Shown piece by piece: positions 60,206 through 64,000 of a stretch of DNA of 64,000 nucleotides. Positions within the stretch are counted from its first letter, which is position 1; every line of letters begins with the position of its first letter. Made by a program: the position numbers and the translations under genes. Below the pieces are notes generated by a model. The model searched no databases and was not told the origin of the DNA. It was given only the letters and a program-made list of their open reading frames with translations. Source of the DNA: Candidatus Gottesmanbacteria bacterium (GTDB lineage: Bacteria > Patescibacteriota > Microgenomatia > 2-02-FULL-39-11); the NCBI GenBank assembly GCA_016186795.1, contig JACPKY010000001.1:129357-193356 (forward strand), given 5' to 3'.

Positions 60206-63200
60206 GTGTATAAATCTAAATTTGAAGCTATTTATACAAGATTCCTCAATACATTGGGGATTTCCCGCACTGCAACAAGACGCCTATATTCTGATTTCAC
60301 GCTTTTCACGAAATATCTTGACTTTACACACCCGGAAAAAATTTCACAGCCCCTAATCAATTTCTTTTCACCCTCCTTTCTATCTGAATTCGCCTCCTGG
60401 CTGGAGAATAAAAACGGTAGTCCTGAAAGAACAAAGGAAGTTCTCACTCTCTTTAAAAAATTTAAGACATATCTTGAGCAAAAATCGCAAATTTTGGAAA
60501 CTGTCGGAGTTGATAATCGCGTCAACTTCCCCCTTGAAGAATTTGTTGCCTTTCTTCGGAAGAAGAATACGCCAGACTCAACGGTTCGAAACTACAGATC
60601 GGATTTGCTACAGTTTTATACTTTTTTAAATAGTCAAAATCCCCAGTTTAATTTTTCTCGGGATTTTTCCTACACAAAAGAAGACCGCGCTGCATTTGCT
60701 CGATTTTTACAAGAAAGGTTCTCACTTTCAAACTCATCTATCAGGAGAAAACTCTCAAGTGTTTCCACATTCTTGTCGTTTCTTCGAAAAAAGGGCTTCA
60801 TAGAGGAAAGCCAATCACTTTACGACGAAACAATTCCTACTCAGATTTCTACTGCCCCACCTTCGTCAAAATCGAAAGTCGCAACTATCCATTCTTTCTT
60901 TTTCCGCTTTAGGCCAGGGTTCCTAGCGAAAAATCCGCTCTACAAATATATCGGTCTTGTGGTCGCTTTTATTTTTGCAACAAGTCTTGGAATTGGGATG
61001 TATCAGCAGTTTTTTGCAAGAACAAAAACTCCTCTTGCCTACCCAACTGAACCTGTCCGCCCATCAAGAATCCTTAACTTCCAAGGACGACTGACTGATA
61101 GTTCTGGAAACCCTATTACTGAACCGAAAAAGATAGAATTCCGAATTTGGGATGCACCAGCAGGAGGAAACTTGCTTTATAAAACTGATGTCTGCACTAT
61201 CATACCAGATCAAAATGGTGTTTTTTCCGCACTTATTGGATCAGCAAGCGAGGATAGTCCTGGATGTGGAACAGAAATACCAGATTCTGTTTTTACGGAA
61301 AACGTCTCAACCTATCTTGCAATTACTGTCGAAAATGACGCCGAAATGACACCTCGGCAGCAAATAGCAACAGTTGGATATGCGATAAATGCAGAAACAC
61401 TCCAAGGCATCCCTCCCCAAAGTCCTGCAGGTATCTCCTCTATCCCCTATATTGACGCAAATGGACTCTTTGCAATTAAAGCACCATCGCCAGTGATTCA
61501 GTCAAGCTCTGGAACATTTAACATTATTGGTCAACAACTCGCTTTACAAACAAGCCAAGGAACGAACGGATCAATCACCCTTGCCCCAGATGGAAAAGGA
61601 ACGGTTAATCTCCAATTTGCCGGAACAACTCCATTCAATGACAAAGGATTTTTAACCATTCTCAATGAAAGCATAACAAGTGGAGCTCTTATCTACGGTC
61701 AAGGTTCACCACTGACAAGCGGTTATAACCTGATTGAACTCAAATCCGGATCACCGGAAACGACACAATTCTCTGTCTCAGCATCTGGAGATACAACGAT
61801 CGGAGGATCACTTGTGGCGGCAGGACAAATTAAAGTAGGAAATTTTTCAAGCGCTCCAACTGCTATAGGAACTGGCGCCATGTATTACAACACCTCGAAT
61901 AATAAACTCTATTACTGGAACGGGACGAGCTGGGTGGAATTTGGAAGTGGAAGCGCTGCCTCTGGAGGAACTGGATCATCAGGTGCAACTGGACCAACGG
62001 GGCCATCCGGACAAACCGGACCAACTGGACCCCGAGGAGAATATGGACCAACAGGAGCAACAGGACCAACTGGACAAACTGGGCCAACTGGACCAACAGG
62101 GGGAACAGGAGCAAGTGGAGCTGCAGGACCAACTGGGTCAACTGGAACAACAGGATCTACGGGGGCGACGGGGGCAGAAGGTCCGACGGGCGCAACGGGG
62201 GCAAGTGGAACTGCTGGGCCGACGGGGTCGACGGGGGCAAGTGGAACTGCTGGGCCAACTGGGTCAACCGGGGCAACGGGAACGGCTGGACCGACTGGGT
62301 CAACGGGTGCAAGTGGAGCTGTAGGACCAACTGGATCGACTGGAACAACCGGATCATCCGGAGCAGTAGGTCCGAGTGGATCAACAGGATCGACGGGGGC
62401 GACTGGCTCTGGTGGGCCGACGGGGAGTACGGGATCAACTGGGGCAACGGGGGCAGGTGGGCCGACGGGGAGTACGGGATCAACTGGGGCAACGGGACAA
62501 GAAGGTCCCACAGGATCAACGGGAAGTACTGGAGCAACTGGACAGACTGGACCGACGGGGTCGACGGGGGCAACGGGCCAGACTGGACCGACGGGGTCGA
62601 CGGGGGCAACGGGGGCAACCGGTCAATCTGGTCCGACCGGGTCAACGGGAGCAACCGGTGGGGCTGGACCAACTGGGTCAACTGGTACTACAGGAGCAAC
62701 TGGACAGGAGGGACCAACTGGAACAACCGGGAGTACAGGGGCGACTGGATCTGGTGGGCCAACTGGAAGTACCGGATCAACAGGAGTCACTGGTCCTTCA
62801 GGATCGACTGGATCAACTGGAGCAACCGGGCAAGAAGGTCCAACTGGTGCAACTGGAGGGACCGGCACAGCAGGTGTAGCAGGACCGACAGGCGGCACTG
62901 GATCAACTGGAGCAACGGGGCAAGGCGGACCTACGGGGAGTACGGGAGCAACGGGTACAACGGGTGCTTCAGGTCAATCGGGACCAACCGGGAGTACGGG
63001 AGCAACGGGTGGGGCTGGTCCAACGGGAACTACGGGGACAACCGGAGGGGCTGGTCCAACGGGATCCACTGGGTCGACGGGAGCCACAGGACAAGGAGGT
63101 CCAACGGGATCCACTGGGTCGACGGGAGCAACGGGTGGAGCTGGGCCAACTGGATCGACTGGGAGTACCGGGGCAACCGGACAAGAAGGTCCAACTGGTT

Positions 63201-64000
63201 CTACCGGGGCAACGGGACAAACCGGTCCAACTGGAAGTACAGGCTCTACCGGGGCAACCGGACAAGGAGGGCCAACTGGGAGTACGGGAGCAACGGGTGG
63301 TGCCGGACCAACCGGGTCAACTGGTACTACAGGAGCAACTGGACAGTCCGGGCCGACAGGAAGTACTGGATCAACCGGGGCAACGGGACAATCAGGGCCA
63401 ACCGGGAGTACTGGGGCAACCGGTGGAGCAGGACCAACGGGGTCAACCGGGGCAACGGGGGCAACGGGACAGTCTGGTCCGACTGGGTCAACGGGAGCAT
63501 CAGGTAGCCAGGGACCAACGGGAACAACTGGGGCAACGGGAGCTACTGGACAGGCAGGACCAACGGGGTCAACCGGGGCAACTGGTGGAGCTGGACCGAC
63601 GGGAACTACGGGAGCAACAGGGGCAAGTGGACAAAGTGGGCCGACGGGATCGACTGGGGCAACAGGAGCTACAGGACAATCTGGACCGACTGGATCGACT
63701 GGGGCAACCGGACAAACTGGTCCGACTGGGTCGACTGGGTCAACGGGGGCAACCGGACAGGAGGGACCAACTGGTTCTACCGGCGCAACCGGACAAACTG
63801 GTCCGACTGGGTCGACCGGGAGTACGGGGGCAACGGGACAATCTGGTCCGACGGGATCGACTGGGGCAACCGGACAGGAGGGACCAACCGGATCAACTGG
63901 GTCAACCGGAGCAACGGGGCAATCAGGGCCAACAGGTTCAACAGGTGCCACTGGTGGAGCAGGTCCAACGGGATCAACGGGAGCAACCGGGGGTGCAGGA
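60206..64000 (+). CDS. Partial: integrase-N-terminal-like (SAM/core-binding) x2 + TM + globular domain + collagen-like GPTGxTG repeat protein. GTG start. Continues past window end.
   Basis: In-frame TAG-TAA at 60200-60205, RBS agggag, GTG at 60206. No stop to 64000. Segments [30 protein letters not shown] and [21 protein letters not shown] match the XerD N-terminal pattern. [41 protein letters not shown] then Gly-X-Y from 61976. Confidence 0.7.
61976..64000 (+). repeat. Collagen-like triplet repeat (GGN-CCN/ACN-ACN...) coding array
   Basis: Perfect 9-nt periodicity ggaccaacgggg... Spurious PVGP antisense ORFs arise from it. Confidence 0.85.

Follow-up and report, generated by a model that had tools for sequence, protein, structure and literature searches.

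A giant gene at a Pam-type pilus locus of a Microgenomates bacterium encodes recombinase-type core-binding domains, a transmembrane helix and a collagen-like stalk

The window (the whole 64,000-nt stretch of DNA that was analysed) comes from a Microgenomates (Gottesmanbacteria-like) CPR bacterium and carries, on its forward strand, the opening 1,265 codons of a real and very large gene. The product is read here, with a probability of about 0.6, as a collagen-stalked adhesin fibre of a Pam-type locus, inserted with its N-terminus inside the cell, where its core-binding (CB, SAM-like) domains would bind nucleic acid. The open frame runs from a GTG start codon at 60206-60208 to base 64000, the end of the window. 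A GGAG ribosome-binding site lies 6 nt ahead of the GTG (60196-60199), and the in-frame stops TAG TAA immediately precede it (60200-60205), both read directly on the forward strand. The start position is homologous to those of the closest relatives, P0001 (MYKYNFEAIY) and L005 (VYKYNFEAIY). An earlier note on this DNA had proposed a GTG-initiated gene missed by the ORF track, and these features bear it out; the frame is absent from the program's ORF list because it runs off the window. An upstream in-frame stop or frameshift detaching the N-terminal part was looked for in the window gene, and none was found. Three independent Logan assemblies were 100% identical to the window over 49,209-62,440, reaching codon 745 and crossing the junctions between CB domains, transmembrane (TM) helix, ectodomain and collagen region, which excludes misassembly as the origin of the SAM-TM-fibre fusion. 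The collagen array is the break point of short-read assemblies.

The two tandem recombinase-type CB domains claimed from the sequence were recovered by different routes. CB domain 2 (residues 104-197, 60515..60796, +) is XerC/XerD-like and was matched by Pfam Phage_int_SAM_1 over residues 110-197 (27.9 bits; cut-off 22.3); the search with SAM profiles that the note had suggested thus returned SAM-like models. CB domain 1 (residues 1-95, 60206..60490, +) is too degenerate in the clade of the window gene to match Pfam by itself, and was assigned from an hhalign comparison of the family's domain 1 with domain 2 (99.4%, E 1.8e-21) and from the bundle of helices that AF2 modelled over residues 2-92 (pLDDT 84-96). 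Its net charge is +6. The four-helix CB fold and the sequence motifs are shared with the N-terminal domain of tyrosine recombinases, and the XerC/D-typical motifs NY-SD and RR/KLSS-L are kept, with Y130 and D133 invariant and R181 and S184 nearly so. The CB domains of the family are basic (median pI 9.7-10.1, with pI >9 in 52/56), in contrast to the ectodomain base at pI 4.1, and the proteins structurally closest to them are all DNA binders. The number of CB domains per relative varies from about 0.5 to 2. In comparisons with the five closest relatives, identity was 24-41% for the CB domains, 13-24% for the linker that follows them, the least conserved region, and 59-76% for the beta-sandwich at the ectodomain base, the most conserved part of the family. 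By these sequence identities, the CB domains evolve faster than the ectodomain base. The 816-nt upstream region held no repeats or operator-like sites above chance.

The absence of a catalytic domain, also claimed earlier, held for the window gene and beyond it. PF00589, with its Arg-Lys-His-Arg-His/Trp-Tyr active site, had no match in the 1,265 residues, and none of 14 scanned relatives had the recombinase catalytic domain, the full-length L007, L010, L061, P0070 and P0071 among them. A TM helix and an ectodomain follow the CB domains where a recombinase would have its catalytic domain. A tyrosine recombinase identity, as given by the database names "site-specific integrase" and "XerD", was rejected because the catalytic domain is lacking, and these names are misnomers.

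Residues 198-243 (60797..60934, +) form a probably disordered cytoplasmic linker (AF2 pLDDT 45-62). A single TM helix (signal anchor) at residues 244-271 (60935..61018, +) was assigned from the AF2 helix, hydrophobicity (Kyte-Doolittle mean 1.86 over 19 residues) and flanking charge, the N-terminal flank being the richer in K/R in 39 relatives against 12, a positive-inside bias. No N-terminal signal peptide was found in the window protein, in which 243 residues precede the sole TM helix. The protein would thus be a signal-anchored membrane protein of type II, inserted N-in/C-out, in agreement with the one TM helix and N-in topology put forward before. Conservation within the N-terminal half is highest in the juxtamembrane stretch (Y266, Q268, A278, R288), which carries the conserved motif Y266-x-Q268-F-F ... 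L-A278-Y-P with invariant Y266 and Q268.

The ectodomain of about 300 aa described in the note was confirmed at residues ~272-586, modelled at pLDDT 82.6. Its membrane-proximal part is a beta-sandwich (residues 285-395, 61058..61390, +) with AF2 strands at pLDDT above 90 and with F292, Q293, R295 and T297 invariant. NCBIfam NF053851 Bdello_MAT_N matched residues 289-383 (E 4e-7 to 7.5e-8; 30-32 bits, cut-off 60) and also matched 36/57 relatives, with a best E of 1.2e-12. An extended fibre segment follows (residues 396-586, 61391..61963, +), assigned from AF2, Foldseek and PHROG, with scant regular secondary structure and an AF2 pLDDT of 81-94 over most of its length. It is closed by the tail-fibre-type motif that had been noted, [20 protein letters not shown], at residues 559-578 (61880-61939). 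Foldseek with the monomer model as query gave weak, non-significant matches of the segment to phage HylP tail-fibre hyaluronidases, which are trimeric fibres, and PHROG tail-fibre families matched only residues 518-599.

The collagen-like array of more than 2 kb, continuing past the window, was likewise upheld. The triple-helix region (residues 587-1265, 61964..64000, +) contains 227 G-X-Y triplets without interruption, has Thr at 171/226 Y positions, matches Pfam Collagen PF01391 at E 8e-80, and has a GC content of 63.5% compared with ~42% elsewhere. It is at least 679 residues long. The rise of collagen is ~0.29 nm per residue, at which the visible collagen part would be ~190 nm long, comparable to the reported size of CPR cells. 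The fibre is probably trimeric, as judged by homology and composition; the structural models are of monomers. Recombinases use their CB domains as dimers or tetramers, a geometry unlike that of a membrane-bound trimer, and this counts against the reading given at the outset. Antisense ORFs had been attributed to the array, and their spurious nature stood, their number being three and not the two first counted (61912-62511, 62157-62681 and 62974-63951, spanning 61912..63951, -). Two of the three were translated, and both are Pro-Val repeats; all are by-products of the repeat and not genes.

Relatives were checked for the same fusion and had the same domain order, so the architecture belongs to a large Microgenomates family and is not a one-off. 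The family comprises at least 283 clusters at 50% identity (E<=1e-30) and 436 loci in GTDB species representatives. Among the best 80 of the 436 loci, nearly all are from Microgenomates/Patescibacteria, and the few records under other names are probably mis-binned. The layout is fixed, with one to two CB domains, a linker, a TM helix, a MAT-like beta-sandwich, a mosaic stalk and mostly a terminal FNWW domain. The relatives are 1,376-3,943 aa long, their stalks are mosaics of collagen, Hint and GIGT-type repeats, and most full-length members end in a conserved C-terminal domain of ~100 aa finishing in FNWW. No S74 domain was found in the relatives scanned. P0070, with ~1,290 aa of collagen, served as the full-length template.

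The loop between helices 2 and 3 of CB domain 2 (residues 145-157, 60638..60676, +) is continuous in the window gene and is the point at which 32/69 relatives are split into two genes, with both halves kept. The split position was mapped using a family HMM on stop-masked translations and a junction table. In those 32 relatives the N-terminal part is a separate gene, encoding a soluble protein of 160-180 aa with CB domain 1 and half of CB domain 2. Such small "1.5-CB" proteins are abundant. A rough tree indicates that the split inside CB domain 2 may have arisen more than once.

The conserved partner genes upstream form a cluster for a Pam-type pilus, a CPR-specific kind assembled with the help of chaperones. 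On the forward strand it contains a membrane protein (55885-56505), a PamT-like secreted protein (56502-57224; NCBIfam CPR_pilus_PamT E 2.9e-12, below the curated cut-off) and two proteins (57221-58165 and 58162-59046) whose sequences, when read, showed a C-terminal TM anchor in addition to a signal peptide. A Big_1 protein identified by Pfam lies on the reverse strand (58958-59389). The L015 homologue of the PamT-like ORF matches the entire PamT profile and Pam_pilin_C. Pam-type synteny, with PamT-like and anchored chaperone-like genes upstream, was present in 44/47 relatives and also at the P0070 locus. The window gene is directly downstream of the PamT-like gene and of the two anchored proteins, which have a PamC/PamD/PamR-like architecture. 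None of the Pam models matched the fibre, which has neither the Ig-like donor-strand architecture nor the Pam-pilin signature, and its identity with a described Pam component (PamA/B/E/T pilins, PamC/D chaperones or the PamR anchor) was rejected. In a recent preprint, a "tail fibre-like protein" always co-localises with pam operons and is at the centre of pam neighbourhoods (Troman et al. 2026, 10.64898/2026.03.03.709456). This passing mention, the only one found in the literature, may refer to the present family; the preprint text leaves the domains of that protein undescribed and contains no integrase, SAM-like or collagen feature.

Bdellovibrio bacteriovorus MAT proteins are trimeric surface adhesin fibres with an invariant N-domain at the cell surface of the producer (Caulton et al. 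2024, PMC10769870). This cell-proximal domain is homologous to the beta-sandwich of the window family, and both groups consist of very long proteins with mosaic stalks and tail-fibre-like segments. The producer of MAT fibres lives by contacting other bacteria, and the fibres are proposed to recognise, or adhere to, the surface of the other cell. The Bdello_MAT_N scores are below the model cut-off, so the window protein is a distant relative with superfamily-level homology and not a MAT member. MAT proteins are Sec-secreted by way of a cleavable signal peptide and have an N-domain thought to bind a surface element, whereas that of the window family is TM-tethered and preceded by CB domains; the stalk is a beta-prism in MAT fibres and collagen in the window protein; and the tips vary among MAT members (interchangeable, some with an S74 protease/chaperone), while most full-length relatives here share one FNWW domain.

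The long uninterrupted G-X-Y array is also found in BclA of Bacillus (GPT-rich), Scl1/Scl2 of Streptococcus and Lcl of Legionella, which resemble the window protein as predicted trimeric rods displaying a distal domain. In Bacillus BclA-type GPT repeats, Thr dominates the Y position as it does here. The likeness is at the repeat level only, and the window protein is far longer. It is anchored by an N-terminal TM helix and has a cytoplasmic domain, in contrast to the LPXTG anchor (Scl), exosporium targeting (BclA) or outer-membrane association of these proteins, and BclA has an exosporium-targeting N-terminus and a C1q-like C-terminus where the window family has CB domains with a TM helix and mostly an FNWW end. 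NCBIfam Scl/Lcl models matched the collagen parts of relatives at 37-46 bits against equivalog cut-offs of 325-500. Membership in Scl1/2, BclA or Lcl was rejected since the scores are far under the cut-offs and the family-specific anchors and non-collagen domains are absent.

A cytoplasmic N-domain that binds DNA or a regulator, one TM helix and a large domain beyond the membrane make up the layout of ToxR/CadC-type bitopic regulators and of RsgI-type anti-sigma factors. The window protein matches ToxR/CadC in layout only (AF2 helix 244-271, no signal peptide, 39:12 charge bias); their OmpR-type winged helix is unrelated to the CB domain in sequence and fold, and their outer part is a compact sensor and not a giant structural fibre. 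The fold and motifs of the N-domains are those of XerC/XerD/XerA and phage integrases. Non-catalytic CB-fold DNA binders that use the recombinase scaffold without recombination chemistry are known in MrpR of SPbeta (PMC10516654) and SroF of phi3T (10.1101/2025.11.27.690993). These are soluble repressors that retain the whole two-domain recombinase fold, whereas the window family keeps the CB domain alone, as a tandem duplicate fused or operon-linked to a membrane fibre and with putative DNA binding.

In the preferred reading, the protein would trimerise through the collagen region and the fibre segments and project its distal domain outward, serving beside the Pam pili as an adhesin or as a fibre for host contact; its surface exposure is suggested by homology and composition. 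The basic CB domains would stay in the cytoplasm and, at lower confidence, bind nucleic acid, most likely DNA. Through such binding the base of the fibre would be physically connected to DNA, which would make the protein a tethered regulator of the ToxR kind or a tether to the nucleoid or to DNA being taken up. In the split relatives, the soluble protein of 160-180 aa probably docks by completing the half of CB domain 2 that begins the fibre protein, which would make the cytoplasmic module detachable. An extension of this scheme, which we consider speculative and rather unlikely, is a new type of transmembrane coupling device: a host-contact fibre wired to a recombinase-derived DNA-binding module, which in split lineages would be a detachable soluble protein kept on the fibre through split-domain complementation and in fused ones might be freed by juxtamembrane cleavage, with contact or tension relayed to transcription, DNA uptake or recombination in these ultra-small episymbionts.

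The chief competitor, doubtful on balance and still the best placed of the alternatives, keeps the same fibre and makes the CB domains a protein-docking or assembly module that binds no nucleic acid. Such a module could, for instance, gather fibre bases into clusters at one pole, or its partner could be the soluble 1.5-CB protein, a Xer recombinase or an assembly factor of the Pam system. The variable CB number fits a docking or adaptor role more easily than sequence-specific DNA recognition, and in the split-domain forms the CB halves would have to meet in a protein-protein interface. The degeneration of CB domain 1 in this clade, the low conservation of the CB domains compared with the ectodomain base and the lack of candidate binding sites upstream point the same way. 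Basic pI in nearly all CB domains, retention of the XerC/D residues (Y130, D133, R181, S184) and the exclusively DNA-binding structural neighbours argue for nucleic acid binding instead. It is improbable that the CB-TM part is a mere long leader, the fibre being cut at LAYP and then released or passed to the Pam pilus as a tip or decoration, the cytoplasmic part then either having no function once the fibre is mature or being set free, through regulated proteolysis, as a soluble factor. The strong conservation of the juxtamembrane stretch, the tight linkage to Pam genes and the fact that no dedicated envelope machinery is proposed for Pam pili (10.64898/2026.03.03.709456) are consistent with such a leader; the neighbourhood, however, contains no conserved protease gene, the fibre lacks donor-strand and Pam-pilin signatures, the MAT-type base domain is thought to stay on the producer's own surface (PMC10769870), and a folded cytoplasmic part of 240 aa kept in >280 clusters is hard to see as disposable.

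A phage or prophage tail-fibre gene, carried as mobile element cargo with the SAM-like region as an integrase remnant, is very improbable. PHROG tail-fibre and collagen-like minor-tail families do match the motif and the collagen parts, Foldseek gave weak matches to phage HylP and tail-tip proteins, and relatives are named "site-specific integrase" at NCBI. The chromosomal synteny with LeuRS, CorA and the Pam cluster is nevertheless fixed across dozens of species, and genes for phage structure, packaging or a catalytic integrase are missing from the flanks. The protein is also anchored by a TM helix and has a cytoplasmic domain, and its CB domains, which share the reading frame, are conserved within that protein or as its operon partner. 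That the gene is an artefact of chimeric assembly, a pseudogene or a chance frame from a G+C-rich repeat is effectively refuted. Repeat arrays do yield long spurious ORFs, as on the antisense strand here, and short-read assemblies break within the array, but the agreement of the three assemblies across the domain junctions, the homologues with the same domain order, the confident AF2 models and a sense frame that is a perfect G-X-Y array of collagen-typical composition all speak for a real gene.

To our knowledge, host recognition and attachment by CPR/Patescibacteria are largely unknown, and we know of no cultured member of the Microgenomates. The family provides a concrete candidate adhesin that is conserved, very large, part-homologous to the prey-recognition fibres of Bdellovibrio and genetically coupled to the Pam pilus, itself first described in 2026. 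Its tandem cytoplasmic CB domains put the N-domain of tyrosine recombinases to a use that was found described nowhere in the literature, and the split within a CB domain is a natural experiment on how the cytoplasmic tail works. For these genomes, hundreds of database entries are wrongly annotated as "site-specific integrase" or "XerD", and non-ATG starts together with repeat-induced contig breaks lead gene callers to shorten the gene or overlook it.

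The fibre gene, a giant gene on the forward strand, was followed from a GTG at 60206 through 1,265 open codons up to the final base of the window, with residues numbered from this GTG. In-frame TAG and TAA stops (60200-60205) directly precede the start, GGAG lies at 60196-60199, and the start is homologous to those of the closest relatives, which begin at the same first residue (MYKYNFEAIY, VYKYNFEAIY). These features support the GTG start and the overlooked gene of the earlier note; the sole reason for its absence from the ORF list is that the frame runs past the window end. 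The frame is continuous from the GTG, with no stop or frameshift within the gene that would make the N-terminal part a separate gene. Logan contigs (n = 4) were retrieved via a neighbouring protein; three include the fibre gene start, and the fourth ends before the gene. The source samples are Logan runs SRR12113424, SRR12113430 and SRR12113383. The three contigs that include the start, from independent assemblies, match the window at every base from 11 kb ahead of the gene to nucleotide 2,235 within it, so the junctions between N-terminal domains, transmembrane (TM) helix, ectodomain and collagen start are not an assembly artefact, and misassembly was rejected. All three end at 62,440, within a perfect 45-nt tandem duplication (62411-62496) inside the collagen array that halts the short-read assemblies, and most database relatives are therefore "partial". 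The 3' end was not reached in the Logan contigs, which all stop by 62,440; a scan of GTDB representatives for an extension of the gene gave a best match of 49% identity, the source genome being absent, and a JGI metagenome scan gave motif-level matches only. In the 816 nt upstream of the gene, no repeats, promoter or terminator signals were found beyond chance. The sole Rfam match was a tRNA. A prophage origin of the gene was also considered and rejected.

The N-terminal part carries two XerC/D-type core-binding (SAM-like) domains in tandem, CB1 (residues 1-95) and CB2 (residues 104-197), in agreement with the first reading of the sequence. Pfam Phage_int_SAM_1 matched residues 110-197 at 27.9 bits (gathering score 22.3), overlapping the region of residues ~40-190 where a lack of any SAM-like match would have spoken against these domains, and the NCBIfam XerC, XerD and XerA models matched the same stretch solely via their N-terminal 85-90 positions. 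Residues 1-105 alone gave no profile match; they align with the canonical first domain in an alignment of 26 two-domain relatives, and CB1 was assigned via the family profile, in which CB1 matched CB2 with an hhalign probability of 99.4% (E 1.8e-21). No catalytic domain had been seen downstream of the SAM domains; it was tested for and is absent, as in all 14 relatives scanned, and the protein, lacking this defining domain, falls outside the tyrosine recombinases. With a median pI of 9.7-10.1 (52 of 56 above 9), the CB domains are basic, and they share 24-41% identity with the closest relatives, compared with 59-76% for the ectodomain base. Their number varies among relatives, and CB1 is degenerate in the clade of the window gene. 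The top PDB sequence match to the family profile, 9i5v chain "14" (labelled RaiA), was dropped as irrelevant; it matched through an N-terminal region of XerC-like appearance on which its paper is silent.

No N-terminal signal peptide was found in the fibre protein, and the one TM helix expected from the sequence was recovered as a single hydrophobic helix, with Lys/Arg richer on the N-terminal flank in 39 relatives versus 12. In contrast to the basic CB domains, the first extracellular domain has an acidic pI of 4.1; flank charge and domain pI together point to a predicted N-in/C-out topology. A juxtamembrane motif, Y-x-Q-F-F ... L-A-Y-P ... R (window 61001-61069, residues 266-288), is conserved family-wide more strongly than anything else in the N-terminal half and may be a processing or interaction site. 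The ectodomain and the collagen array of >2 kb described earlier were both borne out. The ectodomain was modelled at pLDDT 82.6 as a beta-sandwich (residues ~290-392), the best-conserved part of the family, followed by an extended stretch that contains little regular secondary structure. The beta-sandwich matches NCBIfam NF053851, the N-terminal domain of the mosaic adhesive trimer (MAT) fibres of Bdellovibrio, with a score below cut-off; this model was matched in 36 of 57 relatives (best E 1.2e-12), and the fibre protein is a distant relative of the MAT family, not a member. Foldseek E-values against the PDB were non-significant for both the N-terminal and the ectodomain model, and among the weak fold matches to the ectodomain were trimeric phage HylP tail-fibre hyaluronidases. 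Residues 559-578, the motif highlighted in the earlier note, are the sole part recognised by PHROG tail-fibre families. From residue 587 the collagen region runs for 227 G-X-Y triplets without interruption to the window end, and Thr occupies 171 of 226 Y positions. The ORFs antisense to the array are spurious, as had been suspected, the two that were translated being Pro-Val repeat artefacts; there are three of them, not two.

Using residues 1-585 as query, 69 homologues were found, nearly all from Microgenomates/Patescibacteria and most of them partial, several carrying the name "site-specific integrase". The family was present at 436 loci in GTDB species representatives, and among 1.84 billion cluster representatives, searched exhaustively, 283 proteins reached E ≤ 1e-30, the longest having 6,192 aa. 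Lengths were taken from ORFs rebuilt at the GTDB loci, counted as complete if a stop was reached and they were not cut by masked N-runs. ORFs with a stop were mostly 1,376-3,270 aa (two only ~800 aa), and those open at the sequence end reached 3,943 aa. Most complete relatives have in common a C-terminal domain of ~100 aa ending in FNWW(I/L)(V/I). The order of CB domain, TM helix and fibre recurs in homologues, for example in P0070, the best full-length template (55% identical to the window protein), in which a CB domain, TM helix, MAT_N-like base, fibre segment, collagen region (~1,290 aa), distal stalk (~900 aa) and FNWW domain follow one another, with the same upstream genes as in the window. 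The annotated start of P0070 is an internal ATG, and CB1 lies in frame upstream without an ATG (its locus L088, ~5540-5830). This clade seems to use non-ATG starts, with gene callers truncating the protein, which echoes the earlier remark that such genes are mis-called. Hint/intein-type modules occur inside the extracellular fibre of some relatives (P0027, residues 468-728; P0004, C-terminal part).

Upstream of the fibre gene lie genes for LeuRS, CorA and a PIN-domain protein, then pilus-type genes. The last encode, on the forward strand, a membrane protein (55885-56505), a secreted 240-aa protein (56502-57224; NCBIfam PamT, distant, E 2.9e-12) and two proteins that each combine a signal peptide with a C-terminal TM anchor (57221-58165 and 58162-59046), and, on the reverse strand, a protein with a Pfam Big_1 domain (58958-59389). 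Clustering of the flanks of the 69 relatives identified these genes as conserved partners; at the 47 loci with ≥6 kb of upstream sequence, the 240-aa family was present in 44, the anchored proteins in 44 and the Big_1 protein in 39. The Pam pilus, a CPR-specific pilus, comprises the pilins PamA, PamB and PamE, the tip pilin PamT, the PapD-like chaperones PamC and PamD with C-terminal TM helices, and the anchor PamR (10.64898/2026.03.03.709456). A homologue of the 240-aa protein covers the whole PamT profile and a Pam pilin C-domain, and the region 55885-59389 is a Pam-type pilus gene cluster, its ORF 56502-57224 being the distant PamT homologue. None of the genes in this region could clearly be recognised as a major pilin (PamA/B-like). 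Pfam, NCBIfam and PDB-profile searches of the two anchored ORFs gave nothing solid, with faint WxLIP/camelysin hints in a few homologues; because no profile or PDB search confirmed the assignment, they fit the description of PamC/D/R by architecture only. A "tail fibre-like protein" has been reported to co-localise consistently with pam operons, with nothing more said of it (10.64898/2026.03.03.709456); one lies in the pam neighbourhood of Mycosynbacter amalyticus, which can be cultivated. The fibre protein is a neighbour of the pilus, not a component. The Big_1 ORF overlaps the 3' end of the convergent ORF 58162-59046 by 89 nt (58958-59046), and the pair is conserved in relatives. Between CorA and the pilus cluster, a small ORF (55212-55496) lies ahead of the PIN-domain ORF (55477-55851) and overlaps it, and the two may form a toxin-antitoxin pair. 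Farther upstream, the reverse strand encodes a ComEA-like DNA-binding protein (SLBB and HhH; 40464-41084), a TerC/DUF475 membrane protein (41100-42026) and a Laminin_G_3 protein (43940-44935). ComEA-/ComEC-like genes lie ≤8 kb from the fibre gene in 11-13 relatives.

The fibre protein was rated a probably trimeric adhesin fibre whose cytoplasmic module is without precedent. Full-text literature searches gave no description of the CB-TM-fibre architecture, and nothing was found on collagen-like or SAM-like proteins in CPR. The protein falls outside the Scl, BclA and Lcl families, the likeness being at repeat level only, and it has a layout in common with ToxR-type bitopic regulators and a different fold. 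There is good support for a signal-anchored, N-in membrane protein that would trimerise and project a long fibre. Collagen rises ~0.29 nm per residue, so the 679 collagen residues would extend ~190 nm for the part seen here alone. A role in adhesion or host contact alongside Pam pili is likely by analogy with MAT fibres, which bind prey through their distal domains and whose invariant N-domain is believed to lie on the surface of the predator (PMC10769870). Modest support exists for binding of nucleic acid in the cytoplasm by the basic CB domains, by analogy with MrpR and SroF, non-catalytic DNA-binding repressors that retain the fold of a recombinase (PMC10516654; 10.1101/2025.11.27.690993). 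The purpose of such binding may be ToxR-like regulation, a nucleoid tether, a tether for incoming DNA, for which ComEA/ComEC genes sometimes near the fibre gene were considered, or nothing beyond partner docking. Low conservation, variable number, the degenerate CB1 and the lack of upstream operator-like repeats argue against a sequence-specific role.

In 32 of the 69 relatives (L012, L018, L023, L028, L039, L034, L016, L068 and 24 more), detected using the family CB-domain HMM on stop-masked translations, the protein is split into two genes. The split falls every time in the loop that joins helices 2 and 3 of CB2, corresponding to residues 145-157 here (window 60638-60676), with CB1 and the first half of CB2 in an upstream gene of 139-212 aa and the second half of CB2 at the beginning of the giant gene. 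Some relatives, complete chromosomes among them, have an in-frame stop at the break; others change frame there or have up to 794 nt between the two genes. Programmed frameshifting and stop read-through were rejected as causes: the breaks occur in all relative frames, at distances of -92 to +794 nt, and whole genes are inserted in some, a variety that argues against programmed recoding. On a rough neighbour-joining tree of the ectodomain base, split relatives are intermingled with fused ones within several clades, which suggests that fission or fusion may have happened repeatedly. Both CB2 halves are kept in every split relative, and the simplest explanation would be that they reassemble into one domain; the soluble product of the upstream gene would then be a detachable partner of the fibre, by split-domain complementation. 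Extra ORFs lie exactly between the halves at L034 (9398-9976), L016 (2044-2880), L068 (4035-4601) and L013 (9394-9960), and by eye gap ORFs are NYN/LabA-type nuclease-like at three loci, with one like 23S-rRNA-intervening-sequence four-helix-bundle proteins. One clade (L042, L046, L047, L059, L060, L070, L074, L075, L077, L078) has a small conserved gap ORF (~50-100 aa) with the motif W-x-D-P-A-x-x-G-x-P-Y-E. When the CB-TM region was used as a profile to look for other ectodomains, almost only split-form proteins of 160-180 aa were retrieved. Such stand-alone proteins with 1.5 CB domains (P0201-P0320) are widely labelled "site-specific recombinase XerD" or "site-specific integrase"; they are too short for a catalytic domain, and their precomputed Pfam matches are to SAM-like families only.
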